NCBI GenBank assembly: GCA_022711715.1 | Contig: JAKLEC010000001.1 | Location: forward strand, 112,860 to 176,859 | Reading direction: 5' to 3' | Length of the DNA stretch: 64,000 nucleotides | Origin: Acidobacteriota bacterium | GTDB lineage: Bacteria; Acidobacteriota; Aminicenantia; UBA2199 | In this document: positions 28,789 to 60,623 of the stretch, in pieces | Layout of the letters: every line of letters starts with the position of its first letter | How positions within the stretch are numbered: position 1 is the first letter of the stretch | Notes under the pieces: generated by a model | What the model was told of the DNA's origin: nothing | What the model saw: only the letters and a program-made list of their open reading frames with translations | The model's database searches: none | Translations under genes and position numbers: made by a program

Positions 28789-28819
28789 AGTCCCGGCCGG
28801 CGGCAAAGACGGAAAACAA

Positions 28820-28963
28820 GTGATAGTGGTAGTGGTAGTGATAGTAGCGAGCACGAAAATGCCCTATAGGAAAGTGCTATTCGGATGTTTCCCATGATAC
28901 CAACAAGGTCTTATTAGGTCGGCACATGCAGTTCCTACCACTACCACTATCACTACCACTAAG
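28820..28963. repeat. GTGRTA / TAYCAC inverted arrays enclosing an 86-nt insert
   Basis: Left arm gtgatagtggtagtggtagtgatagtag (28820-28847). Right arm cctaccactaccactatcactaccactaag (28934-28963). Confidence 0.88.
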
Positions 28964-30779: not shown

Positions 30780-31061
30780 ATGAAAAAGGTGTTCCTGGTT
30801 CTCCTGCTCGCCCTGCTGCTGGCTCCCCCCCCCTTCCAGGCCACGGCCCAGGAGGCCAATCCCGACGGCGCCTCGCTGCGCACCATCCCCCCGGCCGGGA
30901 GGGCCGAGAGCTATCCCGACAGCGAGGACGACATCTTTTCCAGCTCGTTCGAGCGCGAGATGCTGACCCGCCGCTTCTTCCAGAAGACCCTGCCGCCGCT
31001 CAAGCCCCGGGAGAAGGTGGCCTGGGCCTTCCGCACCTCCCGGGCCAGCATCCTGTTATGA
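30780..31061 (+). CDS. Small secreted protein (93 aa), hypothetical
   Basis: Signal peptide MKKVFLVLLLALLLAPPPFQATAQE. ATGA overlap with the sensor kinase start. Strong sigma70 promoter upstream. Confidence 0.6.
   Translation: MKKVFLVLLLALLLAPPPFQATAQEANPDGASLRTIPPAGRAESYPDSEDDIFSSSFEREMLTRRFFQKTLPPLKPREKVAWAFRTSRASILL

Positions 31062-33858: not shown

Positions 33859-33862
<4 letters not shown>
31058..33862 (+). CDS. Sensor histidine kinase: PDZ-like domain, polytopic membrane region, GAF, PAS, HisKA, HATPase
   Basis: PDZ-like GQVRPGDILLAVN. About 8 TM helices. H-box AHEINTPL. G-box GTGLGLAI. Confidence 0.9.
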
Positions 33863-35204
<1,342 letters not shown>

Positions 35205-35208
<4 letters not shown>

Positions 35209-39367: not shown

Positions 39368-39471
39368 CTATCGCAATTCGTCAGGCGTAATTCATAATTC
39401 ATAGCCGCAAAAGACTGGTCTATTGCCGCTTTTCTTCCGAATTTCGAACCACGAATTACGAATTACGGATC
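39368..39471. repeat. CGTRATT-armed hairpin element, copy 5 (more diverged)
   Basis: ctatcgcaattcgtcaggcgtaattcataattcatagccgcaaaagactggtctattgccgcttttcttccgaatttcgaaccacgaattacgaattacggatc. Confidence 0.85.
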
Positions 39472-39515
39472 TCGGTTTTCATGAAACGGCCGTGTTTCGG
39501 CCGGCGTCTATAATA

Positions 39516-39524
39516 TGGTATAAT
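39516..39524 (+). promoter_or_regulatory. Extended -10 TGgTATAAT for the GWxTD operon
   Basis: Perfect extended -10 box 25 nt before ATG 39549. A second TATAAT lies at 39509-39514. Confidence 0.5.
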
Positions 39525-39548
39525 AAGGAAAAAGAGGATCCAAGCACC

Positions 39549-41642
39549 ATGCATTCTCCAGCAACCCGACCGATGTTCCACCGCTCCCGACGGCGGGCGG
39601 CCCTGCTGCTGGGTCTTTTCCTGCTCCTGGGCGGGGCTTCCCGCGGCGATGCGCCCAAGCGCCCGCCCCTGGCCGAGAAATACCGCCAATGGCTCGAGCT
39701 GGTCGAATACATCATCACCCCCGACGAGCGCCGCATCTTCATCGACCTGGACAACGACCGCGACCGCGAGGCCTTCATCAACATCTTCTGGAACCAGCGC
39801 GACCCCAGCCGCGGCACGCCGGCCAACGAGTTCAAGGACGAGCACGTCCGCCGCTTCGAGTACGTCAACCGCTACTTCGGCTTCTCCTCGCCGCTGCCCG
39901 GCTGGAAGACCGACCGCGGCCGCATCTACATCCTGCTGGGGCCGCCGGTCAGCCGCGACGAGGTCTTCAGCAGCTACCTCTACCCCATCGAGATCTGGGA
40001 TTACTACGGCGAGCCGGGCAAGGGCATGCCGACGATGTTCAACGTCGTGTTCTACCGCAAGGGCAACGCCGGTGACTTCAAGTTGTACATCCCGGCCGTC
40101 GACGGCCCGGACCAGCTGCTGATCACCGGGGTGGGCGAGTTCCGCTCCACCGACTACCAGGCCATCGTCAAGAAGCTCAACGAGATCAAGCCCGAGGTCG
40201 CCGACATCGCCCTGTCGCTGATCCCCGGCGAAAAGACCACCAACTTCTCGCCCTCCATGCGCGACCTGACGCTGATGGCCAAGATCAGCGACCTGCCCAA
40301 GCAGAACATCAACACCACCTACGCCAACCAGTTCCAGCGCTTCAAGGCCTATGTCAACGTCGAGAACTCGGCCGACTACCTGGGCAGCCGCCGCGAGGTG
40401 CTCCTGCTGCGCGATCCCGTGTCGCGGCTGACTTTCCTGCACTTCGCCATCTGGCCCGAGCGCATATCGGTCGATTTCTCGCCGGACACCAAGCAATACG
40501 CCTGCTCCTACAAGATGGCGGTGGACCTGCGCCGGGGCGAGGCGATCGTCTTCCAGCAGACCAAGACCCTGCCCTTCGCCTACGACCAGGCCGGCATGGA
40601 GAAGACGCTGGCCGACGGCTTGGTGCTGGCCGACATGATCCCGGTGATCGCCGGCGATTTCGAGCTGACCGTGCTGGTGCAGAACTCGGTCAACAACGAA
40701 TTCGCCACCTTCAGCGAGCGGGTGCGCGTGCCCGGCGATGGCCAGGCGGCGGTCTTCGGCCCGCTCGTCTCCTACCGCGTGCAGGCCGGCGCCCGCGCCG
40801 TCTTCTCCGCCTTCGCCACCCGCAACCTGCAGGCCAGCCCCGATCCCCAGCGCACCTTCGGCGAGAAGGAGCCGCTGCAGGCGCTGCTGGGCGCCGACTT
40901 CGGCGCCGCTCCCGGCGGCGCCCCGCCGGAAGTCGAGCTGACCAGCGTTCCGGCCGCCGGCGCCGCTCCCGTTTCCCGGCGGCTGCAGCCGCGTTCGAGC
41001 GGCGGCGACCGGGTGCAGACCTACCATGTCGAGCTGGGGGCGCTGCCCCCCGGCTACTACCGCCTGCGCGCCGTCCTGCGCGACGCCCGAGGCGGCGAGA
41101 TCGCCGGCGACGAGACGAACTTCACCGTCTCGCGGCTGCCGGCGGTGTCCCACCCGGCCGTGGCGGCGCCGAGCGTTCCCGCCGCCCGCGAGTACGCCTT
41201 CCGCGCCATGCTGGCCGCCCAGTACGAGGCCAGCGGCCGCCCCGACGACGCCGAGCGCGAGTACGACGAGGCGCTGCGCCAGGGCGGCGACAACCTGCCG
41301 CTGCGAGTCGCCTTCGCCCGCTTCCTGCTCGCCCAGGCCAAGCCCGAGCGGGCGCTGGAGGTGTCCGCCCCACTGCCGGAGCAGGGCGCGCATGCCTTCG
41401 ACCGCTTCGCCCTGCGCGGCAAGGCCCTGTACCGCCTCGGCCGCTGGCAGGAGGCCGTCGACGAGCTGCTGCGCGCCAACGCCCTCTACGACAGCGACAT
41501 CTCGGTGCTCAACGGCCTCGGCCTCTCGCTGCTGCGCCTGGGCAACCCCCAGGAAGCGCGCAAGGCGCTGGCGGCGTCGCTGAAGATCAAGGCGGAGCAG
41601 CCCGACATCGCCGCCGTGCTGCGGCAGACGGAGGCCCCATGA
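39549..41642 (+). CDS. GWxTD domain protein with C-terminal TPR region
   Basis: FINIFWNQRDP...PLPGWKTDRGRIYILLGPP matches the GWxTD family signature. TPR-like C-terminus. Start ATG 39549 follows a TGgTATAAT promoter. Confidence 0.85.
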   Translation: MHSPATRPMFHRSRRRAALLLGLFLLLGGASRGDAPKRPPLAEKYRQWLELVEYIITPDERRIFIDLDNDRDREAFINIFWNQRDPSRGTPANEFKDEHVRRFEYVNRYFGFSSPLPGWKTDRGRIYILLGPPVSRDEVFSSYLYPIEIWDYYGEPGKGMPTMFNVVFYRKGNAGDFKLYIPAVDGPDQLLITGVGEFRSTDYQAIVKKLNEIKPEVADIALSLIPGEKTTNFSPSMRDLTLMAKISDLPKQNINTTYANQFQRFKAYVNVENSADYLGSRREVLLLRDPVSRLTFLHFAIWPERISVDFSPDTKQYACSYKMAVDLRRGEAIVFQQTKTLPFAYDQAGMEKTLADGLVLADMIPVIAGDFELTVLVQNSVNNEFATFSERVRVPGDGQAAVFGPLVSYRVQAGARAVFSAFATRNLQASPDPQRTFGEKEPLQALLGADFGAAPGGAPPEVELTSVPAAGAAPVSRRLQPRSSGGDRVQTYHVELGALPPGYYRLRAVLRDARGGEIAGDETNFTVSRLPAVSHPAVAAPSVPAAREYAFRAMLAAQYEASGRPDDAEREYDEALRQGGDNLPLRVAFARFLLAQAKPERALEVSAPLPEQGAHAFDRFALRGKALYRLGRWQEAVDELLRANALYDSDISVLNGLGLSLLRLGNPQEARKALAASLKIKAEQPDIAAVLRQTEAP

Positions 41643-42577
41643 AACGACTGGCTCCCCTGGCCTGCGCCGCCCTACTCCTCGGCCTGGCGCTGCTGCGGCC
41701 CGTCGCCGCGGCGCCCAAGCTCGACGCCGACAGCGAGGAATTTTACCGCATGGCGCGCTATTTCATGACCCGCGACGAGGAGAAGCGCTTCCGCAACCTG
41801 GCCACCCCCGAACTGCGCCGGGAGTTCATCGACGCCTTCTGGGAGATCCGCGACCCCGATCCCCTCACGACGGAGAACGAGTTCCGCGACGAGTTGGAGG
41901 AGCGTTTCGAATTCGTCGGCCGCTACCTGCGCGAGGGCAACCGCCCGGGCTGGGACACGGCCCGGGGCATGATCTACCTGGTGCTGGGGCCGCCCGACAC
42001 CATGACCGCCGGCTCGACGCCCTACCCCAGCGCCTCCCCCTACAACCGCGACTCGGCGTCCGACACCACCTCCGGCGTCATTGTCTGGCCCTATCCCCTG
42101 CTCAGCGTCAACGTCGTCTTTGTCGACCGCCAGGGCTTCGGCATCTACGAGCTGGACATGCTTCGCACCTCGCCGCGGCTGCTGGCGCTGCTGAAGGCGG
42201 GCAAGACCCGCTTCATCCGCGACGGCGCCAAGTCCGCCGATGAGCCGTTCCTGCCGTTCAAGGCCGACGTCGACGCCGCCCGCGGCGTCGTGCGCGTCGT
42301 CCTCGCCGCCAGGGAGCTGCGCTACGAGATCGATCCCGACGGCTCCTATTACGCCCGCGTGCAGATGGCGGCCAACGTCTACCACAGCGACGGCCGCATC
42401 GTGAGCCGCAAGGAGGAGCAGCGGGTCGCGCTCGGCGTTCCGGGGCAGGAGAAGGAGAAGCTGGAGTTGGAGTGGGCGATCCCGCTGGCGCCGGGACGCA
42501 ACCAGGTCGACCTGCTGGTCTCGGACCAGGTCAGCGGCCGCTCGAACCGCCTGTTCCTGGCAGTGAAAAAAAAGTGA
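41639..42577 (+). CDS. GWxTD domain protein (GWDTA variant)
   Basis: FIDAFWEIRDPDP...RPGWDTARGMIYLVLGPPD. 4-nt overlap with the upstream gene. Confidence 0.85.
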   Translation: MKRLAPLACAALLLGLALLRPVAAAPKLDADSEEFYRMARYFMTRDEEKRFRNLATPELRREFIDAFWEIRDPDPLTTENEFRDELEERFEFVGRYLREGNRPGWDTARGMIYLVLGPPDTMTAGSTPYPSASPYNRDSASDTTSGVIVWPYPLLSVNVVFVDRQGFGIYELDMLRTSPRLLALLKAGKTRFIRDGAKSADEPFLPFKADVDAARGVVRVVLAARELRYEIDPDGSYYARVQMAANVYHSDGRIVSRKEEQRVALGVPGQEKEKLELEWAIPLAPGRNQVDLLVSDQVSGRSNRLFLAVKKK

Positions 42578-42611: not shown

Positions 42612-43568
42612 ATGCGCAACACCATCCGTCACTTCCTGGCCGGCGCCCTGCTGCTGGCCGTCGCCGTCGCGCTCCCCGCCCAGGAGGGCCGCGGCAACGG
42701 CCGCCTCACCGGCACCGTGGTCGATGAGAACGGCGCCCCGCTGGAGAACGCGACCATCACCCTGAAGTACATGGAGTTCAACAATACCCGCGAGACGAGG
42801 TCCAACAACAAGGGACAGTGGGGCTTCCTCGGCCTGGGCAAGGGCACGGTGCAGGTCACCGGCGCCCTGGAGGGCTACGCCTCCACGACCACCCAGCAGC
42901 CGGTCAGCGGCGCCAAGCCCAATCCGGAGATCCACCTGGTGCTCAAGAAGGGCGGCACCGGCATCGCCGGCGACCCCAACCGCGACGCCATCCTGCGCGC
43001 CCACGACCTGTTCGACAAGCGCCAGTACGCCGAGGCGCTGGCCCTGTACCAGGAGTTCGCCCAGAAGAACCCGGCCAACTACCAGATCGGCGTCTACATC
43101 GGCAACTGCATGACCGAAATGGGCGACTACGAGGAGGCCCTGGCCGAATACCAGAAGGTGCTGGCCGAGGTCACCAAGGAGAACCCCGAGCTGAAGGGCA
43201 ATACCACCGCCTCGCTGGTCTTCGCCGGCATCGGCGACGTCTACCTGCGCCAGGAGAAGTGGAAGCCGGCGGTGGAGAACTTCCAGCGCTCGATCGACAT
43301 CCAGCCCAGCGACCCGGCCCTGCCCTTCAACGTGGCCGAGATCATGTTCGCCCGCAACAAGCCCGAGGAGGCCGAGAAATACTACCTGATGGCCGTCCAG
43401 ATCAAGCCCGAGTGGCCCAAACCCTACCTGAAGCTGGCCTACGTGGCCATGAACCGCGGCCAGATGGACAAGGCGGTCGAGCACCTGAAGAAGTACATCG
43501 AGATCGGCAAGGACGACCCCGGCTTCGCCGAGGGCCAGGCGCTGCTCGAGCTGCTGCAGAAGAAATAG
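42612..43568 (+). CDS. CarboxypepD_reg-like domain + TPR protein, secreted
   Basis: AAGGAGGA SD. Signal peptide. GRLTGTVVDENGAPLENATITL beta-sandwich motif followed by TPR repeats. Confidence 0.8.
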   Translation: MRNTIRHFLAGALLLAVAVALPAQEGRGNGRLTGTVVDENGAPLENATITLKYMEFNNTRETRSNNKGQWGFLGLGKGTVQVTGALEGYASTTTQQPVSGAKPNPEIHLVLKKGGTGIAGDPNRDAILRAHDLFDKRQYAEALALYQEFAQKNPANYQIGVYIGNCMTEMGDYEEALAEYQKVLAEVTKENPELKGNTTASLVFAGIGDVYLRQEKWKPAVENFQRSIDIQPSDPALPFNVAEIMFARNKPEEAEKYYLMAVQIKPEWPKPYLKLAYVAMNRGQMDKAVEHLKKYIEIGKDDPGFAEGQALLELLQKK

Positions 43569-43572
43569 CCCC

Positions 43573-46062
43573 GTGCCCACGTTCGCGAGGCGGTGGCGCG
43601 GCGCCGCCGCCGCGGCGCTGCTGCTGGCCCTGGCGTTCGCTGTCGGCGCCTGCCGCCGCCAGCAGCCGGGGCCGGGCGGCTCCGCCGGCGGCCGCTTCAA
43701 CCTGCTGCTCATCACTTTGGACACCACCCGGGCCGACCGCCTGGGCTGCTACGGCGACGCCCGCGCCGCGACGCCCGTGCTGGACCGCCTGGCCCGCGAG
43801 GGCGTGCGCTTCGAGCGCGCCTATACCACCGCGCCGCTCACCCTGCCGGCCCACGTCAGCCTGATGACCGGCCGCGGGCCCCAGGCCCACCAGGTGCGCA
43901 ACAACGGCACCTATGCGCTGCGCCCCGAGGAGGCCACCCTGGCCGAGGAGCTGAAGCGCGCCGGCTTTTCCACCGCGGCCATGATCGCCGCCTTCGTGCT
44001 GGAAGCCAAGTTCGGACTGGCCCAGGGGTTCGACCGCTACGACGACGCGCTGGACAAGCCGCAGGGCTACACCAACTTCCGCTCCGAGATCACCGCCGAC
44101 CGGGTGCACGACAAGTTCCGCCGCTGGCTGGACGGCGCCCCCGGGGCGCCCTTCTTCTGCTGGGTGCACCTCTACGATCCCCACGCCCCCTACGCGCCGC
44201 CCGCCCCCTACCGCGAGCGCTTCGCCGGCGACCCCTACCGCGGCGAGATCGCCTTCATGGACGAGACCATCGGCCGCATGCTGGCCGACCTGGAGGAGCG
44301 CGGCCTGCTGGAGAACACCCTGGTGGTGGCCGTGGGCGACCACGGCGAGGGCTTCGACGAGCACGGCGAGAGCGGGCACGGCGTCTTCTGCTACGAGGAG
44401 TCGCTGCGCGTGCCGCTCATCTTCCGCCTGCCGCGCCTTTTCGCCGGCGGCCGGGCGGTGAAGCGGCCGGTGGGACTGGTCGACGTGCTGCCCACCGTGC
44501 TCGATCTCTGCCGGCTGCCGCGCCCCGCCGGCATGCAGGGGCGCAGCCTGGGGACGCTGCTCCGCTCCGCCGGGGAGGACGGCGGCGAGGCCCCCCTCTA
44601 CTTCGAGAGCCTGTACGGCATGGAGGAGATGGGCTGGGCGCCCCTGTCGGGACTGCTGAGCGGCTCCTGGAAGTACATCTCCCTGCCCAAGCCGGAGCTG
44701 TACGACCTCGCCGCCGATCCGCTGGAAAAGAGCAACCTGTACCTGCAGAAAAACGCGCAGGCCAAGCGCCTGGCGCGCGAGCTGGACGACCTGCTGAGCC
44801 GCACGGTGCCCGCTGGCGCCTCGGCGCTGCGGCCGCAGCAGACGCGCGCCAACCAGGCGCGCCTGCGCGCCCTCGGCTACCTGGCCGCGGCCGGGAACCA
44901 GGCCTGGCAGGGCTCGGGCGACGACCCCAAGGACGGCATCGGGCCATTGAACTTACTGATGAAGGCCCGCGAGGAGGTACGCCAGGGGCGCCTCGACTCC
45001 GCCGCCCGACAGTTCGCCGCCCTGCGCGCCAGCGGCATCGACCGCACGCTCCCCCAGTTCTACGACATGTACTACGAGCTGGCGCTGGCGCGCAAGGACC
45101 CGGCCCGGGTACGTGCCGCCCTGCGCGAGGCCAGCGAGCGCTTTCCCAGCCTGACGCGCTTCGACATGGTGCTGGCGGGCTACCTGCGCGAGCGCGGCGA
45201 CAAGCACGGCGCCGAGGCGGCGGCGCTGCGCGCCCTGGCCAAGGACCCGAAGACCGTCGAAGCCCACCTGCTGCTGGGCGAGCTCTACCGCAACCAGAAG
45301 CAGCTGGAGAAGGCCATCACCCATTTTCGCCAGGCCTGGGACCTGGAGCCCGACGGCGCCAAGCTGGGCCTCGCCCTAGCCGACCTCAGCCTGGAGGCGG
45401 GGCGCGCGCCGGAGGCGCTGGAGGCGTTGCGCCGCCTCCTGCGCCAGGCCGGCGACCGTCCCGACGCGCTGGAAGCCGACGTCCGCGCCCAGGCGGCCAA
45501 GCTGCTGCTCAAGCTCGGGCAGCCGGAGCTCGCGGAAGGCCTGCTGCGCGGCCTGGTCGGCGAGCAGGCCGGCAACCCGGCGCACTGGACGCAGCTGGGC
45601 CTGGCCCAGCTCGACCGCGGCCAGGGGGACGAGGCGCTGGCCTCCTTCACCCGCGCCCTCGAGCTCGATCCCCGGCAGGCGCTGGCCCTGAGCGGCATGG
45701 GCACCCTGCACCTGACCCTGTTCCGCCAGCGCAAGGACCGGCCGAGCCTGCAGCGCGCCGAGGAGTACTTCTCGCGGGCGGTGGCCGTGGACGCCAAGCT
45801 GGTCACGGCGCTGAACGGCCTGGGCGTGACCTATCTCTACCTCGGGGACGCGGCACAGGCCATCGAGCGGCTGCGCACCGCCGTCGCCGCCGACCCGGGC
45901 TTCGTCAACGCCTATTTCAACCTGGCCATCGCCCAGCTCAGCGCCGGCCGCAAGGGCGCGGCGAAGAACACGCTGGGCATGCTGCGCCAGCGCCACGGCG
46001 GGCGCCTCAGCGCCGGGGAGCGATCGCAGTACGAGGCGCTCTGGCGCGAAGCCACGTCCTAG
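43573..46062 (+). CDS. Sulfatase-like (alkaline phosphatase superfamily, Thr-type) hydrolase fused to TPR domain
   Basis: LLITLDTTRAD...APLTLPAHVSLMTG...VGDHGEGF, followed by about 350 aa of TPR. GTG start with a possible lipobox (AVGAC). Confidence 0.85.
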   Translation: MPTFARRWRGAAAAALLLALAFAVGACRRQQPGPGGSAGGRFNLLLITLDTTRADRLGCYGDARAATPVLDRLAREGVRFERAYTTAPLTLPAHVSLMTGRGPQAHQVRNNGTYALRPEEATLAEELKRAGFSTAAMIAAFVLEAKFGLAQGFDRYDDALDKPQGYTNFRSEITADRVHDKFRRWLDGAPGAPFFCWVHLYDPHAPYAPPAPYRERFAGDPYRGEIAFMDETIGRMLADLEERGLLENTLVVAVGDHGEGFDEHGESGHGVFCYEESLRVPLIFRLPRLFAGGRAVKRPVGLVDVLPTVLDLCRLPRPAGMQGRSLGTLLRSAGEDGGEAPLYFESLYGMEEMGWAPLSGLLSGSWKYISLPKPELYDLAADPLEKSNLYLQKNAQAKRLARELDDLLSRTVPAGASALRPQQTRANQARLRALGYLAAAGNQAWQGSGDDPKDGIGPLNLLMKAREEVRQGRLDSAARQFAALRASGIDRTLPQFYDMYYELALARKDPARVRAALREASERFPSLTRFDMVLAGYLRERGDKHGAEAAALRALAKDPKTVEAHLLLGELYRNQKQLEKAITHFRQAWDLEPDGAKLGLALADLSLEAGRAPEALEALRRLLRQAGDRPDALEADVRAQAAKLLLKLGQPELAEGLLRGLVGEQAGNPAHWTQLGLAQLDRGQGDEALASFTRALELDPRQALALSGMGTLHLTLFRQRKDRPSLQRAEEYFSRAVAVDAKLVTALNGLGVTYLYLGDAAQAIERLRTAVAADPGFVNAYFNLAIAQLSAGRKGAAKNTLGMLRQRHGGRLSAGERSQYEALWREATS

Positions 46063-46066
46063 CAAA

Positions 46067-46294
46067 GATATCGTGACGCGTAACGCGTGACAAGTAACCG
46101 CGTCAGGACGAGCGCTCGTGATTCGTCATTCGTAATTCGTGATTCGCAACAGCAATGGAACGGTTCATGCTATTCGAACACTCTCTCGTCATTGATTCGC
46201 TTCAGGGCTTTCCTAACACGAACACAAACACGAACACATAGTTAGATCGTTCGTTCTTTTTGGCTTTCCTACCACTATCACTACCACTACCACT
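46067..46294. repeat. Composite mosaic: GCGTRAC array - linker - CGTRATT array - CAACAGCAATGG core - CACGAA/CACAAA array - TAYCAC array
   Basis: Colinear with 3016-3153. The final taccac array continues into the conserved 3' flank of the sulfatase-like gene. Confidence 0.85.
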
Positions 46295-46310
46295 CAGAGC
46301 TCGGTACGTT

Positions 46311-48632
46311 CTACTTCTTCTCGAGCTCGGCAATGAGCCTTTCCCCCTCGCGCGTGTAGAAGTCCCGGCGCTCGGGGTTGCCCAGCGCGTTGAACAAATT
46401 GGTCAGCACGAAATAGCCGAACAGCGTGTCGCGGTCCCGCGGCGGCACGGCGATCCCCTTTAGGCAGAGGTCGACGGCTTCGTTGAGGTCGCCTCCCCGG
46501 CGCAGCAGGATCTCGGCCAGGTGGAAGCGCGGCAGCTTCAGCCCGGGGTTGGCGGCGATGGCCTGGCGGTAATAGCCCTCGGCCTCGCCGGCCCGTCCGG
46601 CCTGCTTGAGCAGGTTGCCCAGGTTGGCTGCCGCCTGGAAGTTCTGGCCGTTGACTTCCAGCTCGCCGCGATAGAACTCGATGGCCGCCTCAGGCTTCTG
46701 CAGCGCCTCCTGCACCTGCGCCAGCAGGAAGCGGGTGTTGCGCGCCCGCGGGTTCTCCCTGAGGCCGCGGCGCAGCAGCTCCTCGGCGGCGGCGTAGTCC
46801 CCCTTCAGGATCAGCGCCTCGCCGGCCTGGTTGTAGGCCTGGGGAGCGGCCGGGTCGATGGCGATCGCCCGCCGCAGCAGCGGCAGGGCCTCGTCGGGAC
46901 GGCGCTGCAGCATGCGGATGTGGCCCAGCTCCTCCAGCAGCGCCGGGTCGTCGGGGAAGACCTTCAGGAAAGCCAGGTTCTCCTCGGCGGCGGCGTCGAG
47001 CTCGCCCGACGTGGCCAGGGTCTTGACGACGTTGATCATCAGGAAATTGTTGTCGGGCTTGAGGGCCAGGGCGCGGCGGAAGGCCTCGAGCGCCTCCTGG
47101 CGCCGCTTGCGCTTCAGGTTGACGTTGCCCAGCAGGCTCCAGGCGTCGGCCAGCTCGGGCTCCTCGCGCGCCAGCTTCTCCAGCAGGACGGCGGCGTCCT
47201 CGAAGCGCTTCTGCTCCATCAGCGCGGATGCCCGCGAGATGGAGTTGCCGACGCCGATCTTGTCCTTGGGATCGGCCAGCGGCCTGGACTCGTCGACGCG
47301 CACCTCGCCCGACAGGTAGCCCAGGGCGGCCAGCCGCCGCTGGTCCTCGGGGCTCAGGCGGCTGCCGGCGGCGCTGCGCAGCGCGTTGCGCGAGCGGCGG
47401 CTGACGAAGTCCAGCAGGCGGCCGCGCAGCTCGCGGCGGCGCGGATCGCCAACCAGGTCGCGGCTCTCGCCGGGATCGCGCCCCAGGTCGTACAGCTCGT
47501 CGCGCGGCGCCAGGATGTACTTGAGCGCGCCGCGGTGGAAGGACTGCAGGGGCGACCAGCCGAAGTGGAAGCGGGGGTAGAAGGTCTCGCTGTAGGCCTC
47601 GCCCTCTCCGCCGGCATCGCGCCCGTCCAGCTGGGGCCAGAGCGACCGGCCCTGCCACTCCCGGGGCGCGGGAACGGCCAGCATCTCGAGGATGGTCGGT
47701 GCCACGTCGACCAGCTCCACGGTCCTGGGCACCGTGCGGGCGGCGAACGGCCGCGGGGCGCGGACGATCAGCGGCACGCGGACCGTCGTCTCGTACAGGA
47801 ACATGCCGTGGCCGTCCTCGCCGTGGTCGCCGAGCCCCTCGCCGTGGTCGGCGGCCACCACGATGAGCGTGCGCTCATACAGCCCCTTCTCCTTGAGAAA
47901 GGCGATGAACTTGCCCAGCTCGGCGTCGGTGTACTCCACTTCTCCGCGGTAGGCGGCGCGCGGTGTGCCGCGCGGGTAGGGCGGCGGCGGGTCGTAGGGT
48001 GAGTGCGGGTCGTACAGGTGGATCCAGGCGAAGAAGCGGCGGCCGCCGATCCTCTCCAGCCACTGGCGGGCCTCGCCCAGCACCTCGTCGGCGCGCTTCT
48101 CGTTCTCCAGCAGGATGCGGCCGTAGCGCGCCGGGTCGAAGCGGTCGGAGTAGAGGTCCCAGCCCTGGGCCAGTCCCCACTTGTTGTGCAGCACGAACGC
48201 GCCGATGAAGGCGGCGGTGGCCATCCCGCGCCCCTGCAGCACCTCGCTGAGCAGGGTCAGCGCGGCCGGCGCCTGGAAGCCGCCGTTGTCGCGGACCTGG
48301 TTGAAGGGCGGGTAGGTGCTGGAGAGGAGCGAGGTGTGCGAGGGCAGGGTGAGCGGCACCTGGGCGACGCAGCGGTCGAAGCGCGCCCCTTCCCCGGCCA
48401 GGGCGTCCAGCGCCGGCGTGCGCGCCAGCCCGGCGCCGTAAGCACCGACATGGTCGGCGCGCAGGGTGTCGATGGTGACCAGGATGACGCTGAGGTCGCC
48501 TGAGGGGAGCTGGCGGCCGGGAGCGGACAGGAAGCGGAAGGCCAGCCAGGCGGCCGCTGCCAGCAGCGCCACGGCCCCGGCAACGGCCCACCAGCGCGGA
48601 CGGAAAGGACGAGCGGCGGCGGGGACGGTCAT
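46311..48632 (-). CDS. Sulfatase-like (Thr-type) hydrolase fused to TPR domain, paralog
   Basis: VTIDTLRADH...VPLTLPSHTSLLS...AADHGEGLGDHGE plus TPR. 773 aa, colinear with 48892-51213. Confidence 0.88.
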   Translation of the reverse strand: MTVPAAARPFRPRWWAVAGAVALLAAAAWLAFRFLSAPGRQLPSGDLSVILVTIDTLRADHVGAYGAGLARTPALDALAGEGARFDRCVAQVPLTLPSHTSLLSSTYPPFNQVRDNGGFQAPAALTLLSEVLQGRGMATAAFIGAFVLHNKWGLAQGWDLYSDRFDPARYGRILLENEKRADEVLGEARQWLERIGGRRFFAWIHLYDPHSPYDPPPPYPRGTPRAAYRGEVEYTDAELGKFIAFLKEKGLYERTLIVVAADHGEGLGDHGEDGHGMFLYETTVRVPLIVRAPRPFAARTVPRTVELVDVAPTILEMLAVPAPREWQGRSLWPQLDGRDAGGEGEAYSETFYPRFHFGWSPLQSFHRGALKYILAPRDELYDLGRDPGESRDLVGDPRRRELRGRLLDFVSRRSRNALRSAAGSRLSPEDQRRLAALGYLSGEVRVDESRPLADPKDKIGVGNSISRASALMEQKRFEDAAVLLEKLAREEPELADAWSLLGNVNLKRKRRQEALEAFRRALALKPDNNFLMINVVKTLATSGELDAAAEENLAFLKVFPDDPALLEELGHIRMLQRRPDEALPLLRRAIAIDPAAPQAYNQAGEALILKGDYAAAEELLRRGLRENPRARNTRFLLAQVQEALQKPEAAIEFYRGELEVNGQNFQAAANLGNLLKQAGRAGEAEGYYRQAIAANPGLKLPRFHLAEILLRRGGDLNEAVDLCLKGIAVPPRDRDTLFGYFVLTNLFNALGNPERRDFYTREGERLIAELEKK

Positions 48633-48638
48633 CGGCTA

Positions 48639-48667
48639 ATCCTACCACAGGCGAAGCCACCTGGCAA
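48639..48667 (-). promoter_or_regulatory. Sigma70-type promoter TTGCCA-17-TAGGAT, leaderless configuration, for the sulfatase-like gene
   Basis: Minus strand reads TTGCCAggtggcttcgcctgtggTAGGATtagccgATG. A homologous segment precedes GTG 51213. Confidence 0.4.
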
Positions 48668-48689
48668 CGAGATACCAGCTAAGCAATCA

Positions 48690-48875
48690 GTGATAGTGGT
48701 AGTGGTAGTGATTGCAACCGCATTGAAGATCGATCTCATGAGGCTTTCTACGATGATCAACAGCGAAATACTTTGCTTTCAAGCCTCAATTTATCTTTAA
48801 ATGCACCATCCTCTGACCGGCAGCAGCAGGAGATCGCCATGTGCTGCTACTACCACGATCACTACCACTACCACT
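48690..48875. repeat. GTGRTA / TAYCAC inverted arrays enclosing a 132-nt insert
   Basis: Left arm gtgatagtggtagtggtagtgattg (48690-48714). Right arm ctactaccacgatcactaccactaccact (48847-48875). Confidence 0.88.
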
Positions 48876-48891
48876 TGGAGCTCGGCAATTT

Positions 48892-51213
48892 CTACTTTTT
48901 CTCGAGCTCGGCAATGAGCTTCTCCCCCTCGCGGGTATAGAAGTCGCGGCGCTCGTTGTCGCCCAGGGCGTTGTAGAGGTTGGTCAGCACGAAGTAGCCG
49001 AACAGCGTCTCGCGGTCCCGGGGCGGCAGCGCGATCCCCTCCAGGCAGAGGCCGACGGCGCGCTCCAGGCCGCGGCCCTGGCGCAGCAGGATCTCCGCCA
49101 GGTGGAAGCGTGCCATCTTCAGCCTGACGTCGGCGGCGACGGCCGCCTCGTAGTACCGGGCCGCTTCGTCGAGCCGGTCCTGCTGCTTCAGCAGGTTGGC
49201 CAGGCTGACCGCCGCCTCGTGGCGCCGGGGATCGGTCTCCAGCTCGCGGCGGTAATGCCCGGCCGCCTCCTCTTTCCGCCCCTCGCCCTCGGCGGCCAGC
49301 CCCAGCAGGTAGTGGCTTCCCGCGGCATTGGGCACGACGGCCAGCACCCCGTCCAGCAGCTCCCGGGCGGCGGCGAAATCGCCGGCGGCGACGCGCTTGG
49401 CGGCCGCCTCGTTGAGCCGGGGGTAGATCCCGGGATCGGCGGCGAAGGCCCGGCGCAGCGCCTGCAGCCCGTCCGCGCCGGCGCCCTGCGCCAAACGGAT
49501 GCGCCCCAACACGGCCAGGAGCTCCGGGTCGTTGGGGGCGTCGCGCAGGAAGCGTTCGGCCTCGGCGGCCGCCTCAGCGAGGCGGTTCAGCTTCTCCAGC
49601 GTCTTCAGCAAGTCGAGGCGGTTGTTGGCGTCCTCGGGCTTGAGGGCCAGGGCGCGGCGGAACGCGGCCAGCGCCTCTTCGAAGCGGCCGCCGGCGAACA
49701 GGGCGTTGCCCTCCAGGTTCACGGCGTCGGCGAAGCCGGGGTTGCGCCCGACGATGCCGCGGGCCGTTTCCAGCGCCTCCTGCCAGCGCCCCGAGCCGAG
49801 AACGGCCACCGCCTTGCCGAAGGCCACATAGTCGCCCAGCCTGTCCTTGGGATCGGGCAGCGTTTCATCGTCGCCGGCGGCGGCGACGGAGCCGCCCAGG
49901 TAGCCGAGAGCGGCCAGGCGGCGGCGGTCCTCGGCGCTCATGGCCTGGATGGCGGAAGGCGCCAAAGCCCCGCGGCCGGCCTTCTGCATGAACGCCAGTC
50001 CGCGCCCGCGCAGGTCGTCGCGGCGGCGCGGCCGCTCGCCGGCGAGGTTGCGCCGCTCGCCCGGGTCGGCGGCGAGGTCGTAGAGCTCGTCGCGCGGCGC
50101 GAAGATGTATTTCTCGCCGTTGCGGTAGAAGGCCTTGAGCGGCGACCAGCCGTAGTGCAGCCGCGGGTACCAGGTCTCGCTGTAGGCGTCGCCGAAGCGG
50201 GAGTCGCTTTCGCCGGCCAGCAGCCGCGTCAGCGGCTTCCCCTGCCAGCCGGGGGGGGCGGGAATGCCCAGCAGCTCCAGGATGGTCGGCGCCACGTCGA
50301 CCAGCTGCACCGTCGTGGCCACCGTGCGGGCGGCGAACGGCCGCGGGCCGCGGACGATCAGCGGCACGTGCAGCGTCGTCTCGTACAGGAAATAGCCGTG
50401 CTTCTGCTCGCCGTGGTCGTCGAGCCCCTCGCCGTGGTCGGCGGTCGCCACCACCAGGGTCCGCTCCCAGAGCCCCCTCTCCTTCAGGAAGGCGAAGAAA
50501 CGGCCCAGCTCGGCGTCGGTGTACTCCACCTCGCCGCGGTAGGGGTCGTTGCCGCGGTCGAAGGGCGGCGGCGGGACGTAGGGGAAATGGGGGTCGTAGA
50601 GGTGGATCCAGGCGAAGAAGCGCCGGTTGCTGATGGCGGCGAGCCAGCCGCGGGCTTCGGCCAGCACTTCGCCGGCCGGCTTCTTGGCCAGCAGATCCAG
50701 GCTGCCGCCGGCTCCGGGATCGAAGCGGTCGGCGTACAGGTCGAACCCCTGGTTGAGCCCCCACTTGCCGTGCAGGACGTAGCCGCCGATGAAGGCGGCG
50801 GTGGCGAAACCGCGCCCGCGCAGCACCTCGCTGACCAGCTCCAGCTGCGGCGGCGCCTGGAAGGCGCCGTTGTCGCGCAGGCGGTGGAACAGCGGCTGCG
50901 TGGCCGACAGCAGCGAGGCGTGCGATGGCAGGGTGAGCGGCGCCTGGGCGACGCAGTGCGCGAAACGCGTCCCCTCGCCGGCCAGGGCGTCGAGCGCCGG
51001 CGTCGCGGCCCGCCCCTGGCCGTAGGCGCCCACGTGGTCGGCGCGCAGGGTGTCGATGGTGACCAGCACCACGTTCCAGGAGGCGGGGTCGGCAAGGCCG
51101 GCCCGCGGGCGCAGCAGCCAGACGCCCAGGGCCAGCAGCGCGGCCAGGGCCATGACGGCCGGCCACAGGAGCCGACGGCGGCGGCCGGAGGGGGAAGCGG
51201 ATGGCGTTCTCAC
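48892..51213 (-). CDS. Sulfatase-like (Thr-type) hydrolase fused to TPR domain, paralog
   Basis: VTIDTLRADH...APLTLPSHASLLS...TADHGEGLDDHGE plus TPR. GTG start. Same C-terminal ...REGE(R/K)LIAELEKK as its neighbour. Confidence 0.88.
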   Translation of the reverse strand: MRTPSASPSGRRRRLLWPAVMALAALLALGVWLLRPRAGLADPASWNVVLVTIDTLRADHVGAYGQGRAATPALDALAGEGTRFAHCVAQAPLTLPSHASLLSATQPLFHRLRDNGAFQAPPQLELVSEVLRGRGFATAAFIGGYVLHGKWGLNQGFDLYADRFDPGAGGSLDLLAKKPAGEVLAEARGWLAAISNRRFFAWIHLYDPHFPYVPPPPFDRGNDPYRGEVEYTDAELGRFFAFLKERGLWERTLVVATADHGEGLDDHGEQKHGYFLYETTLHVPLIVRGPRPFAARTVATTVQLVDVAPTILELLGIPAPPGWQGKPLTRLLAGESDSRFGDAYSETWYPRLHYGWSPLKAFYRNGEKYIFAPRDELYDLAADPGERRNLAGERPRRRDDLRGRGLAFMQKAGRGALAPSAIQAMSAEDRRRLAALGYLGGSVAAAGDDETLPDPKDRLGDYVAFGKAVAVLGSGRWQEALETARGIVGRNPGFADAVNLEGNALFAGGRFEEALAAFRRALALKPEDANNRLDLLKTLEKLNRLAEAAAEAERFLRDAPNDPELLAVLGRIRLAQGAGADGLQALRRAFAADPGIYPRLNEAAAKRVAAGDFAAARELLDGVLAVVPNAAGSHYLLGLAAEGEGRKEEAAGHYRRELETDPRRHEAAVSLANLLKQQDRLDEAARYYEAAVAADVRLKMARFHLAEILLRQGRGLERAVGLCLEGIALPPRDRETLFGYFVLTNLYNALGDNERRDFYTREGEKLIAELEKK

Positions 51214-51462: not shown

Positions 51463-51492
51463 AAAAAAAGGGGGGCACTTTCGTGCCCCCCC
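51463..51492 (-). terminator. Intrinsic terminator after TonB-dependent receptor 1
   Basis: Minus strand reads GGGGGGCAC-GAAA-GTGCCCCCC followed by U7. Confidence 0.9.
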
Positions 51493-51520: not shown

Positions 51521-54358
51521 TCAGTTGAACTCGATGCGGGCGCCGAGCTGGAACATGCGCGGATCGTTGATGGTCAGCATGCGCTCGAACGAATACAGCG
51601 GGTTGCTGGAGTTGGCCCAGACCGAGGTGGCCACGCCCTGGTTGAAGACGTTGAAGCAGTCGGCGAAGGCGGCCAGGGTCACGTTCTTGATCTTGAAGGC
51701 CTTTTCCAGGCGTAGGTCGAGCCGCACCGCGTTGGGCAGGCGGCGGGCGCCGCGTTCCTCGGCGTTGATGGTCGTGCCGGAACGGCTCTGGGTGACGCTC
51801 ACGCCCAGGTAGCGGCTGGTGACGACGCGGTTGTAGGTGCCGCCACTCAGGAAGCGGAAGTAGCCGCTCAGGTTGATGCCCAGCGGGCCGGCCCACATGC
51901 CCTGCACCTTGAACTGGTGGCGGGCGTCGAGGTCCAGCGTGCCGTAGGCGTTGACGTGGGCGTTGGGATCGCCGAACAGGCCGGAGGTGCCCAGGGAGGC
52001 GTTGCCGCGGCCCTGCGAGATGAGGCCCTTGCCCTCGCCGTAGACGTAGGAGGTGTTCAGCGCCCAGCCGTGGCTGAAGCGCTTGTTGAGGGTGAGTTCC
52101 ACGCCGGTGTAATCGCGCTCGGCCCCCGGCGGGTTGACGATGTAGATCTCGCTGGCGGCGGTGTTCTTCTTGCTGTAGAAGGTGACGGTCTTGCCGTCGA
52201 AGGGATCGACGGTGGACTTGGCGATCCAGTTCTTGCTCCAGTCGAGCTCGCCGCTGGACATCAGCTTGTCGATGTCCAGCTGGGCGGCGTCGACCTGGTG
52301 GACCAGCCTGCGGTCCCACTTGCGGATGAAGCGGGCGCCGGCCGACCAGTCGGTGAAGAGCTCGCGCTCCAGGCCGACCGTCAGCTCATCGGTATAGGGT
52401 GCCTTGAGGTCGTAATTCTTGTAGCCCACCTTGGTGGAGGCGGGGACGGACCAGACCGACTCGGTGCCGGGGATCTGGGTGCCGTCGGGGTTCAGGAAGA
52501 CGATCCAGCCGACCCAGCCGTTGGGATGGGCGATGTTGATCCAGCCCGTCTGGTTGGCCATGGTGTAGCGCGACCAAGAGGCCTTGGCCAGCGTCTTGTT
52601 GTCGCCGGTTACGTCGTAGATGAGGCCGAAGCGCGGGGCCAGCGTGGTCCAGGAGAGCCCCTTGATCGGGTCGGTGATGGAGCGGTTAACGGTCAGGTAG
52701 CTGAGGGCGCCGGGGAGCTGGAAGGCGCCTTCGCCGCCGCCCTGCTTGGGCCAGGTCAGCGAGTTGTACTCCAGGCGCAGGCCGAGGTTCAGGGTCAGGT
52801 GGCGGTTGACGCGCCAGGTGTCCTGGATGAAGCCGAAGTAGTCATCCATGTTGTCCTTGCGGTCGAAGCCGTCGCCGGCCAGCTGCAGGCCGTAGTAGTA
52901 GTAGCCATCTGTGCCGAGCATGGCGTTGTAGTGGCAGTTGGAGACGGGGTCGGCCTTGCCGTAGACCATCCAGCCGACGCGGGCCAGCTGCGCCTCGCCG
53001 CCGACCTTCAGCTCGTGCGTGCCCATGAAGTCGTCAATGAAGGTGGTGGCGTCGACGTTGAAGTTGTAGCGGTCGCGGCCGTTGTGGTCCTGGGTGCGCC
53101 AGGCACCGCCGTTGTCGAGGTAGTTGTAGGTGTACAGGTCGTAGTAGAAGGGGGCGTCGAGGTTGGAATCGAGGTTCATCTGGAACTGGCTGATGCCGAC
53201 CTTGAAGTTGGCGTACATGTTCTCGCCGAAGTAGCGGTTCCAGTTGGCATTGATCACGTGGGTGGGGGTGGTCTGCTTGACGGTGTTGTTCTCGGTGTGC
53301 CAGCGGTCGGCGTTGCGGTTGTTGTTCAGGCGGTCGGAGTAGTTGTAGGAGAGGACGAACTTGTTCTTCTGGTTGGGCTGGAAGGTCAGCTTGATGTAGG
53401 GCAGGGGCTGGGTGACCTTGATGGTGGTCTTGGCGTTGGGCTTGTTGTAGGGGAAGCCGATCGCGTAGTTCTGCACCTGCTTGTAGGTGGCGGAGGCGAA
53501 GAACCACAGCTTGTCCTTGATGATCGGGCCGCCGATGGAGAAGGCGGGCTCGAACTCGAGGTGGTTGCCCGAGTAGCCCTCGTTCTCCAGCACGGTGCCC
53601 TTGCGGTTGTCGCCCACCAGGCTCTCGTGGTTCAGGTAGAAGGAGGCGGCGCCGGTGAAGCGGTTGCCGCCCGACTTGGTGACCACGTTGACCATGGCGC
53701 CGCGCACCGAGCCGTACTCGGCCGAGAGGCCGCCGGTCTGGACCGAGATCTCGTCCATGATGTCCAAGCCGAAGGTGACGTTGGTGACGCCGGTGGCCGG
53801 GTCGCCCAGGTTCACGCCGTCCAGGTTATAGGAGTTGTCCATGGTGGCCGAGCCGTGGGCGGAGTCGCCGGTCATGCCCGGGGCCATGTTGACGAAGTTG
53901 GCCAGGTTGCGGGGGGCGGGCAGCGACTTCAGGAACTGCACGTCGAAGTTGGCCGCGCGCGTCTGGCGCTGCGTGTCCACCGTGGGGCTCTGGCCGGTGA
54001 CCACGATCGCTTCCTGGATCGCTTCCTGCTTGATGGTGGCGTTGACCGTGAAGGTCTGCAGCGCCGCCACCTTGATGTCCTTGCGGATCACGGTGCGGAA
54101 GCCTTCCAGCTGGAAGGTGATTTCGTAGACGCCGACGGGCAGGTTGGCGAAGCGGTAGACGCCGTTTTCGTTGGTGACGGCGGTCATCTTGCCGATCACC
54201 AGGGCCGGCGAAGAGATGACTACGGTCACGCCGGGAACGGATACGCCGTCTTCCATGGAGACGACACCCATCAGCGTGCCGGTCTGGCTGGACTGCCCGT
54301 ACCCGACGGTCATGACCGCGAGCAGGAGCATCAGCCCGATGCTGAGCTTTTTCATCAT
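51521..54358 (-). CDS. TonB-dependent receptor with N-terminal CarboxypepD_reg-like domain
   Basis: Signal peptide. GTLMGVV...GVSVPGVTVV cap domain. Plug and beta-barrel. AGGAGG SD. Sigma54 promoter upstream and intrinsic terminator downstream. Confidence 0.9.
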   Translation of the reverse strand: MMKKLSIGLMLLLAVMTVGYGQSSQTGTLMGVVSMEDGVSVPGVTVVISSPALVIGKMTAVTNENGVYRFANLPVGVYEITFQLEGFRTVIRKDIKVAALQTFTVNATIKQEAIQEAIVVTGQSPTVDTQRQTRAANFDVQFLKSLPAPRNLANFVNMAPGMTGDSAHGSATMDNSYNLDGVNLGDPATGVTNVTFGLDIMDEISVQTGGLSAEYGSVRGAMVNVVTKSGGNRFTGAASFYLNHESLVGDNRKGTVLENEGYSGNHLEFEPAFSIGGPIIKDKLWFFASATYKQVQNYAIGFPYNKPNAKTTIKVTQPLPYIKLTFQPNQKNKFVLSYNYSDRLNNNRNADRWHTENNTVKQTTPTHVINANWNRYFGENMYANFKVGISQFQMNLDSNLDAPFYYDLYTYNYLDNGGAWRTQDHNGRDRYNFNVDATTFIDDFMGTHELKVGGEAQLARVGWMVYGKADPVSNCHYNAMLGTDGYYYYGLQLAGDGFDRKDNMDDYFGFIQDTWRVNRHLTLNLGLRLEYNSLTWPKQGGGEGAFQLPGALSYLTVNRSITDPIKGLSWTTLAPRFGLIYDVTGDNKTLAKASWSRYTMANQTGWINIAHPNGWVGWIVFLNPDGTQIPGTESVWSVPASTKVGYKNYDLKAPYTDELTVGLERELFTDWSAGARFIRKWDRRLVHQVDAAQLDIDKLMSSGELDWSKNWIAKSTVDPFDGKTVTFYSKKNTAASEIYIVNPPGAERDYTGVELTLNKRFSHGWALNTSYVYGEGKGLISQGRGNASLGTSGLFGDPNAHVNAYGTLDLDARHQFKVQGMWAGPLGINLSGYFRFLSGGTYNRVVTSRYLGVSVTQSRSGTTINAEERGARRLPNAVRLDLRLEKAFKIKNVTLAAFADCFNVFNQGVATSVWANSSNPLYSFERMLTINDPRMFQLGARIEFN

Positions 54359-54394: not shown

Positions 54395-54410
54395 TGCAAT
54401 TTTCATGCCA
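54395..54410 (-). promoter_or_regulatory. Sigma54 promoter TGGCAT-GAAAA-TTGCA
   Basis: Minus strand reads TGGCATGAAAATTGCA, with exact consensus blocks and spacing. The -12 element lies about 37 nt upstream of ATG 54358, and AGGAGG is in the leader. Confidence 0.8.
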
Positions 54411-54912: not shown

Positions 54913-54941
54913 AAAAAAAAGGGGGCACGTTCGTGCCCCCC
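54913..54941 (-). terminator. Intrinsic terminator after TonB-dependent receptor 2
   Basis: Minus strand reads GGGGGCAC-GAAC-GTGCCCCC followed by U8. Homologous to 51463-51492. Confidence 0.9.
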
Positions 54942-57815: not shown

Positions 57816-57854
57816 GTGAACCTCCATGCGCTCATTTTCATCCATGGAGGGAAT

Positions 57855-57870
57855 AGCAATAATGATGCCA
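57855..57870 (-). promoter_or_regulatory. Sigma54 promoter TGGCAT-CATTA-TTGCT
   Basis: Minus strand reads TGGCATCATTATTGCT with consensus spacing. The -12 element lies about 40 nt upstream of ATG 57815. Confidence 0.8.
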
Positions 57871-58104: not shown

Positions 58105-58166
58105 AAAAAAAATAGCAAGAGAATTCGTTAGGTTCAGGACCTCCGGTTCACGAAAAATGGAAGAAG

Positions 58167-58194
58167 AAAAAAAAGGCGGCCTCAGCGGGCCGCC
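58167..58194 (-). terminator. Intrinsic terminator about 230 nt downstream of the prolyl oligopeptidase stop
   Basis: Minus strand reads GGCGGCC-CGCUGA-GGCCGCC followed by U8. The intervening 3' region is filled with repeat arrays. Confidence 0.7.
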
Positions 58195-58219
58195 CATTTC
58201 ATATTACTATGCTCGCGTT

Positions 58220-58416
58220 CTCATCACGCGTTACACGTCACGCAGGCTCGTCATTGCAGTTCGTTTTGCGGCAGCGGTACACCGAGCCCTGCTTTTCTTA
58301 CCGTACACCGTATGCCGCGGCGGTCCCGTCAGGGCCGCCGGCCGTATGCCAAACTCAGGCAAGTTCTCTTTTCTTGCCGTACGCCGTACGCCGTATACCG
58401 TATGCCGTATGCCGAG
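58220..58416. repeat. GTCACGC-like and GCCGTAY arrays with a GC hairpin, in the prolyl oligopeptidase 3' region
   Basis: catcacgcgttacacgtcacgc; ccgtacaccgtatgccg; hairpin cggcggtcccgtcagggccgccg; gccgtacgccgtacgccgtataccgtatgccgtatgccgag. Confidence 0.8.
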
Positions 58417-58426
58417 TTCTGTCAGC

Positions 58427-60553: not shown

Positions 60554-60593
60554 GGGCCTCCTATGAAAATTTGGACCGGTGCGCAAGAGACAT

Positions 60594-60623
60594 ATTATAC
60601 GCCATAAGGGGGAAAATGGTTAA
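60594..60623 (-). promoter_or_regulatory. Sigma70-type promoter TTAACC-18-TATAAT for prolyl oligopeptidase
   Basis: Perfect -10 box on the minus strand, about 40 nt upstream of ATG 60553. Confidence 0.45.

Follow-up and report, generated by a model that had tools for sequence, protein, structure and literature searches.

Predicted threonine-nucleophile phosphoesterases on a sulfatase scaffold in TPR-fused proteins of Candidatus Aminicenantes

The 64-kb window analyzed here (64,000 nt of contig JAKLEC010000001.1, from a Candidatus Aminicenantes metagenome-assembled genome) carries three paralogous genes encoding sulfatase-fold proteins fused to tetratricopeptide repeats (TPRs), referred to below as A (43573–46062, + strand, 829 aa, HOW44059.1), B (46311–48632, − strand, 773 aa, HOW44060.1) and C (48892–51213, − strand, 773 aa, HOW44061.1). 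All three have T-x-P-x-H where sulfatases have the C/S-x-P-x-R formylglycine motif, and from the evidence presented below we give a probability of about 0.55 to the reading that they are metallo-phosphoesterases, that is, TPR-targeted hydrolases with a Thr nucleophile in which the S1 sulfatase scaffold holds a phosphoryl-transfer site. The original prediction for this locus, based on the same motif, had held that an automatic annotation as sulfatase is probably wrong. This applies to the homologues, which are named ‘sulfatase’, ‘arylsulfatase A-like enzyme’ or ‘choline-sulfatase’, but not to A, B and C themselves, as their GenBank name is already hedged (“sulfatase-like hydrolase/transferase”).

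The three motif peptides were found exactly as quoted in that prediction, PLTLPAHVSLMTG at aa 88–100 of A (nt 43834–43872, +), PLTLPSHTSLLS at aa 93–104 of B and PLTLPSHASLLS at aa 92–103 of C (both on the − strand), with PLTLPAH in A (43834–43854, +) and PLTLPSH in B (48336–48356, −) and C (50920–50940, −). In the numbering of protein A, which is used throughout, the two key residues of this motif are T90, the predicted nucleophile, and H94. When the proteins were aligned with phmmer to sulfatases of known structure (7p24, 7oz8, 5g2v, 6pt6/6ptk, and choline sulfatase as 6fny/7pth, wild-type C54 and C54S), T90 fell on the Cys/Ser that becomes formylglycine and H94 on the motif Arg, in agreement with the earlier assignment of Thr and His to these positions. 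A Cys or Ser elsewhere in the sequence does not take the nucleophile position, which all eight sulfatase alignments assign to T90. Only ~15% of homologues have Cys at position 95, and S96 lacks the P/R context. In the AlphaFold2 model of A (mean pLDDT 81.8, catalytic part mostly >90), the helix at 90–99 begins exactly at T90, the strand at 43–49 precedes D50, and the strand at 249–255 precedes D256-H257. As modeled, this is the nucleophile and metal-ligand topology of the fold, and the catalytic C61 of the Enterococcus arylsulfatase EfAS likewise lies at a helix N-terminus.

The T-x-P-x-H motif is a property of a large family. A word-indexed search retrieved 7168 proteins at E ≤1e-10, the best 120 of which were ~700-aa sulfatase-TPR proteins, with T-L-P-[SA]-H in 119 of the 120. 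An exhaustive search gave 29,520 clusters at E ≤1e-30, true sulfatases included, and the best 150 of these 29,520 50%-identity cluster representatives all matched at E ≤1e-100, with T-x-P-x-H in 144 of 146 domains. Conservation was quantified in two sets, namely 135 near-complete domains from 85 genomic loci and the 146 domains from the 50%-identity cluster representatives. T-x-P-x-H was present in 133 of the 135 near-complete domains, the other two having Ser, and neither Cys nor Arg occurred at the motif positions in this set or in the 146 domains. Among the same 135 domains, the residues around the first predicted metal ligand were retained in 135 (D50), 133 (T51), 134 (R53) and 134 (D55), and the motif residues in 133 (T90, with Ser in the other two) and 135 (H94). 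Further downstream the counts were 132 for H199, 128 for D202 (plus five with Glu), 133 for H204, 133 for D256, 135 each for H257 and E259, 130 for H264 and 133 for H269. A scan of species-representative genomes found more than 561 loci, distributed over Aminicenantes, Acidobacteriota (Vicinamibacteria, Terriglobia and Thermoanaerobaculia), Planctomycetota, Sumerlaeota, Myxococcota and Binatia. Tandem arrays of 2–4 paralogues were common, and four proteins, P0122, P0123 and P0124 (1317–1549 aa) and P0146 (906 aa), contain two Thr-type catalytic domains per polypeptide.

As to the scaffold, Pfam Sulfatase (PF00884) matched all three proteins with E-values of 3e-46 (A), 4e-39 (B) and 2e-40 (C), at 135–159 bits, and SGSH_C, the sulfatase C-terminal lobe, and many TPR families matched as well. 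No NCBIfam model reached its cut-off for A, B or C, the best being arylsulfatase and choline-sulfatase models at one-quarter to one-third of the required score. The best sequence matches in the Protein Data Bank (PDB) were all S1 sulfatases or phosphonate monoester hydrolases (PMHs; E ~1e-33), as were the top 50 PDB matches of a Foldseek search, which had target-normalized TM-scores mostly of 0.57–0.73, and up to 0.80. Among these, 9fo1, 7stt, 6ust, 3ed4, 4uph, 7oz8 and 9koq gave E-values of 1e-23 to 1e-19 and TM-scores of ~0.6–0.73. These enzymes (compared here as 9FO1 S1_16, 7OZ8 BT1918, 6FNY, EfAS 9KOQ and ArPMH 4UPH) have a common two-lobed fold of PF00884 plus the SGSH_C lobe, and share with the A-B-C family the first metal Asp, the D-H pair, the PH histidine and the C-terminal ELYDL..DP.E. 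Judged from the nearest structures and the retained ELYDL..DP.E, the clade thus appears to be a branch of, or a sister group to, the S1 sulfatases, with a phosphotransferase-type site.

The predicted metal ligands shared with sulfatases are in place. D50 lies in LDTTRAD of A (43717–43737, +), the counterpart of IDTLRAD in B (48453–48473, −) and C (51037–51057, −), within which T51, R53 and D55 are near-invariant. The predicted ligands D256 and H257 lie together with E259 and H269 in the stretch DHGEGFDEHGESGHG of A (44338–44382, +), which reads DHGE..HG in B (47805–47849, −) and C (50395–50439, −). Compared with the sulfatase ligand set (Asp, Asp/Gln, Asp, Asn/His), D50, D256 and H257 were all invariant, and the DTTRAD and DHG ligands pointed out beforehand are therefore both present and conserved. 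The second metal-ligand Asp of sulfatases is T51 here, at a position that is also variable in true sulfatases (DQ in 7oz8). A third motif, HLYDPH, contains H199, D202 and H204 and was located at 44167–44184 (+) in A, 48003–48020 (−) in B and 50587–50604 (−) in C, H204 being aligned with the sulfatase PH histidine. By contrast, the sulfate-binding residues are exchanged: the Lys/His pair of GKWH aligns with A-A-F-V, so that Lys and His become Ala and Val, and the distal sulfatase Lys aligns with H269/G270, H269 lying 12 residues past H257 with a spacing identical to that of K324 and H312 in EfAS. Unlike S1 sulfatases, the A-B-C family also has the added H199 and D202, a C-terminal TPR domain and a membrane anchor.

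These exchanges bear on the question of whether A, B and C could be true sulfatases that use Thr or another residue instead of formylglycine, which we regard as very improbable. It would account for the fact that the closest relatives in both sequence and structure are all sulfatases and that the C-terminal ELYDL..DP.E and the sulfatase PH histidine are retained, and sulfatases of Bacteroidota commonly adjoin TonB-dependent transporters, as many members of this family do (see below). Nevertheless, with the formylglycine motif replaced in almost every domain of both conservation sets and the sulfate-binding residues missing, the family falls outside the definition of an S1 sulfatase. In EfAS, activity is wholly or almost wholly lost when R65, K110, H112, H220 or K324 is mutated. 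Of the residues required there, the motif Arg, both members of the Lys/His pair and the distal Lys have each been exchanged in the present family. We know of no sulfatase with a Thr nucleophile. Moreover, Thr cannot be oxidized to formylglycine (PMC5066984).

The residues that replace those of sulfatases recur in the phosphoethanolamine transferases MCR-1 and EptA, which were matched by hhalign with probabilities of 94% (MCR-1) and 93% (E. coli EptA) and E-values of ~1e-7. Aligned pairs between A and MCR-1 were D50/E246, T51/T247, R53/R249 and D55/D251 in the first motif, H199/H390 and H204/H395 in the second, and D256/D465, H257/H466, E259/E468 and H269/H478 in the third. In MCR-1, E246, T285, D465 and H466 bind Zn1, H395 and H478 bind Zn2 or contact phospho-Thr285, and E468 orients H478 (PMC5216409). 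Every Zn1 and Zn2 residue of MCR-1 except the nucleophile Thr285, and in addition E468, therefore has an aligned counterpart in A. For the Zn1-type site the counterparts are D50, D256 and H257, with T90 placed by the sulfatase alignments, and for the Zn2 site they are H204, H269 and E259, which are at least 98% conserved. The residues of this remodeled site were at least 95% conserved in the 135-domain as well as the 146-domain set, a pattern indicative of purifying selection. Besides a Thr nucleophile, the two families share [D/E]-T-x-R-A-D, H-x4-H-x-P-x-Y and D-H-G-E-x8-H-G, identically spaced. They differ in the first ligand, which is Asp in the A-B-C family and Glu in EptA/MCR-1, in the loop around the nucleophile, and in the S1-type C-terminal lobe and the TPR domain, both absent from EptA. 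At the family level the similarity is low, as the NCBIfam MCR-12 model scored 19 bits (E 3e-4) against a cut-off of 1200.

A second set of Thr enzymes, the nucleotide pyrophosphatases/phosphodiesterases (NPPs; PF01663), shows a similar agreement around the nucleophile. ENPP1 structures have T-F-P-N-H with an Asn at +21, a spacing equal to that of T90, H94 and N111 in the stretch TLPAHVSLMTGRGPQAHQVRNN of A, and PDB entries of ENPP1 with a T-to-A nucleophile mutant confirm which Thr is concerned. ENPP1 and the Xanthomonas NPP share with A the pattern T-x-P-x-H-x-S-x-x-T-G-x-x-P-x-x-H...N, and Pfam Phosphodiest (PF01663) matched above its gathering cut-off of 23 bits in all three proteins (60.8 bits for A, 43.5 for B and 42.3 for C), although these scores are far under those for PF00884. 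For the NPP Zn1 pattern, D-x3-H plus a distal His, the candidates H199, D202, H204 and H269 are invariant in the family but differently spaced, and the C-terminal half of the A-B-C family is of the sulfatase or EptA type, unlike that of NPPs, the family being much closer to sulfatases overall. In a comparison with an NPP-type protein encoded beside a family member at another locus (L055:15983–18646), only the C-terminal 77 columns aligned. LtaS and its relatives are likewise Thr-bearing PF00884 proteins that are not sulfatases (PMC5066984), but their motif is T-x-N-x-E and they have a multi-pass membrane domain; the NCBIfam LtaS model matched weakly (E 2e-6, 27 bits against a cut-off of 970) and that for YejM scored similarly far under its cut-off. 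Taken together, the coincidence of the replacements with the MCR-1 Zn1/Zn2 residues and with the T-x-P-x-H...N of ENPP1 lends support to the earlier suggestion that this Thr site is of the phosphoryl-transfer type.

In the mechanism that we propose, D50, T90, D256 and H257 would bind a divalent metal, by which the pKa of the T90 hydroxyl would be lowered. T90 would then attack the phosphorus of a phosphate mono- or diester or of a phosphonate ester and form a covalent phospho-Thr90 intermediate, N111 presumably contacting a non-bridging phosphoryl oxygen. H204 and H269, the latter oriented by E259, may act jointly with H199 and D202, either as ligands of a second metal or as donors of a proton and of hydrogen bonds to the phosphoryl and leaving-group oxygens. 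Finally, a water molecule would release the phospho-Thr90 intermediate.

If the covalent intermediate were resolved by an acceptor other than water, A, B and C would be group transferases like EptA/MCR-1, LtaS or OpgB, taking a phospho-headgroup (phosphoethanolamine, phosphoglycerol or phosphocholine) from a membrane lipid onto T90 and handing it on to a glycan of the envelope or to a TPR-bound protein. We consider this unlikely. In its favor, the non-sulfatase residues match MCR-1/EptA one-for-one, including the E468/H478 pair, and the catalytic domain begins only ~10–15 residues past the membrane anchor. TPR domains also typically bind proteins, and a divergence of paralogues mainly in the TPR part is what would be expected for different acceptors. 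On the other hand, EptA and MCR-1 have a five-helix membrane domain that binds the lipid donor, as lipid-dependent transferases do, whereas the A-B-C family has a single anchor helix or a lipobox and its catalytic domain starts at about residue 40. The scaffold and C-terminal lobe are of the soluble-hydrolase type, the NCBIfam LtaS, MCR and YejM scores are the low ones given above, and adjacency to uptake receptors fits nutrient processing better. Hydrolysis is therefore preferred, because of the soluble-hydrolase scaffold, the absence of a multi-pass membrane region that could accommodate a lipid donor, and the uptake receptors encoded nearby.

We also considered that these proteins may be pseudoenzymes, catalytically dead binding proteins that use the old pocket and the TPR domain for ligands or partners. 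Pseudoenzymes commonly lack the canonical nucleophile motif, a fused protein-interaction domain would suit such a role, and a few clearly degenerate copies do exist. Yet D50, T90, H94, H199, D202, H204, D256, H257, E259 and H269 are near-invariant across distant phyla, as expected for a working metal site, and this makes the pseudoenzyme explanation extremely improbable for the family as a whole. The degenerate copies are rare and have lost several site residues jointly: in L056:2824–4539(−), L077:2829–4607(−), P0158 and P0177, both T90 and D256 are gone, and three of the four are also without H199 and H204. This joint loss suggests that the residues form one functional unit, in what would be an active enzyme and not a pseudoenzyme. 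The four copies retain D50, H94 and H257, sit beside intact copies, and are themselves candidate pseudoenzymes.

All three proteins appear to be exported. A begins with a lipoprotein-type signal (..FAVGAC, aa 1–27), which is followed by the catalytic domain of S1-sulfatase fold (aa ~40–415), a linker and the TPR repeats (aa ~452–829). B and C begin with an Arg-rich segment and a single hydrophobic signal-anchor helix, followed by the catalytic domain and the TPRs. The TPR part thus measures ~378 aa in A and ~317 aa in B and C, close to the 300–350 aa originally estimated. Among homologues, a hydrophobic anchor or lipobox was found at 201 of 210 N-termini, 10–15 residues ahead of the first strand of the catalytic domain. 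Such N-termini in A, B, C and their homologues indicate exported, membrane-tethered enzymes, whose catalytic domains are predicted to face the periplasm, held by a lipoprotein anchor in A and by an uncleaved signal-anchor helix in B and C.

In an alignment of 62 sequences, columns with ≥90% conservation numbered 102 of 376 in the catalytic domain and 9 of 374 in the TPR domain. Similarly, the identity between B and C amounts to 69% for the catalytic domain and 49% for the TPRs, and that of A with B or C to 46–48% and 22–28%, respectively. A constant catalytic domain joined to a diversifying TPR domain is as expected if the TPRs serve as a targeting module, which would recognize a protein or polymer partner and in which the paralogues would mainly differ. 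The linker that joins the two domains (aa 431–454 of A, nt 44863–44934, +) contains the motifs L..ALGY(L/I) and DPK(D), which are also present in B and C and are invariant although the linker is otherwise poorly conserved and of low pLDDT; they could be a docking or hinge element.

The gene neighborhood links the family to outer membrane uptake. Directly upstream of C, on the same − strand, lies a gene for a TonB-dependent receptor-like outer membrane protein consisting of CarboxypepD_reg and a barrel (945 aa, 51521–54358), and beyond it lies a paralogue (959 aa, 54966–57845, −), so that B and C are downstream of both. By unbiased clustering of all open reading frames (ORFs) within 6 kb of family members at the 85 loci, the CarboxypepD_reg-Plug-barrel (TonB-dependent) receptor was the top cluster, found at 46 of the 85 loci, ahead of CarboxypepD_reg-TPR proteins (14), FG-GAP/ASPIC (9), GWxTD-TPR (8) and PF01663 proteins (6). 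Receptor density per 10 kb decreased with distance, from 3.1 within 500 bp to 0.85 at 0.5–1.5 kb and 0.24 at 3–5 kb, with none beyond, and the receptor was located upstream on the same strand in 20 of 42 close pairs. The receptor-enzyme arrangement was also found in four independently fetched loci. Based on this link, which suggests imported phosphorylated polymers or organophosphates as the substrate, the enzymes of Aminicenantes and Acidobacteriota probably act on material imported via the adjoining TonB-dependent receptors.

Several observations weigh against a phosphoesterase function or against its link to uptake. Overall, the proteins resemble true sulfatases far more than they do any phosphotransferase, and both the ligand geometry and a second metal site are predictions from sequence equivalence. 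In the alignments made with hhalign the nucleophile stretch is out of register, T285 of MCR-1/EptA falling 4–5 residues before T90, which indicates a different loop length at this point. None of the 11 Planctomycetota loci has a neighboring receptor, and the transporter link is thus not universal. Pho-type regulation was not seen. Furthermore, co-transcription of B and C with the receptor genes was rejected for the 64-kb window. Sigma-54-type promoters, TGGCAT-N5-TTGC, lie just upstream of each receptor gene (54396–54410 and 57856–57870, −); the whole window has just four matches with one mismatch, these two included. Each receptor gene is followed by a strong intrinsic terminator, GGGGGGCACGAA.GTGCCCCC plus a T-run, in nearly identical copies at 51469–51492 and 54920–54941 (−), so that the receptors look monocistronic, and B and C have sigma-70-like sites of their own. 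With separate promoters and terminators, the receptor link is therefore one of neighborhood and not of a single transcript. The receptor genes were probably duplicated along with their terminators. A sensor kinase (31058–33862) and a sigma-54 activator response regulator (33859–35208) are encoded ~20 kb from the receptor promoters.

Gene A lies in a different context. Two genes for GWxTD-domain proteins (739 and 312 aa, 39423–42577, +), whose stop and start overlap by 4 bp, are followed by a gene for a CarboxypepD_reg plus TPR protein (318 aa, 42612–43568, +), which is separated from A by 4 bp. The four genes, in translational coupling or close to it, form a probable operon with A as the last. 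The same set of two GWxTD genes, a CarboxypepD_reg-TPR gene and an A-type gene recurs in other Aminicenantes loci, for example L002, and a CarboxypepD_reg-TPR gene directly adjoins a family gene in ~8 other loci. A literature search on the GWxTD domain returned nothing specific.

Extending the phosphoesterase reading further, one may speculate that the family is a surviving intermediate form that links two groups, the Zn-dependent Thr phosphotransferases such as NPP and EptA and the sulfatases that use formylglycine, with the Thr and a His-rich, possibly two-metal site kept or rebuilt on an S1 scaffold, and that the variable TPR domain docks to the periplasmic CarboxypepD_reg extension of the receptor while the enzyme strips phosphate esters from the imported polymers. 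This combined picture is quite unlikely to be right in full, but if true it would describe a non-Bacteroidota counterpart of polysaccharide utilization loci, and environmental surveys would currently be counting thousands of its members as sulfatases.

The general principle that PF00884 includes Thr-bearing proteins has been published: the SulfAtlas paper of 2016 stated that many PF00884 members carry Thr and are not to be considered sulfatases, and it discussed the T-x-N-x-E (LtaS-like) group and not the T-x-P-x-H/TPR clade (PMC5066984). Our literature search, which also covered superfamily similarity networks, found no paper on this clade, on sulfatase-TPR fusions or on sulfatases of Aminicenantes, and the clade of A, B and C is a large, widespread and uncharacterized variant inside the alkaline phosphatase superfamily. 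PF00884 counts are widely used to infer degradation of sulfated polysaccharides in Acidobacteriota, Planctomycetota and candidate phyla; if members of this clade are phosphoesterases, such counts overestimate sulfatases and miss a class of enzymes that process organophosphates. The exchange of nucleophile and ligands on a sulfatase scaffold also represents a natural experiment on a question studied so far mainly via mutagenesis of promiscuous superfamily members, and the pairing with TonB-dependent receptors offers a testable handle on the physiological role.

Elsewhere in the window, a gene for a membrane-anchored PF01663 protein, the NPP-type phosphodiesterase family, was located at 26689–28854 (−, 721 aa), and the ORF at 26356–28869 (+), which had no family match, is probably spurious, the real gene being on the opposite strand. 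Likewise, an 816-aa ORF at 58157–60607 (+) had no family match, and the real gene on the opposite strand encodes a prolyl oligopeptidase (S9; 58427–60586, −), located just past the second receptor gene on the same strand. Genes for BatD-like and TPR-SH3 proteins at 21373–23894 (+) look like part of a Bat (aerotolerance-type) cluster and appear unrelated to A, B and C.

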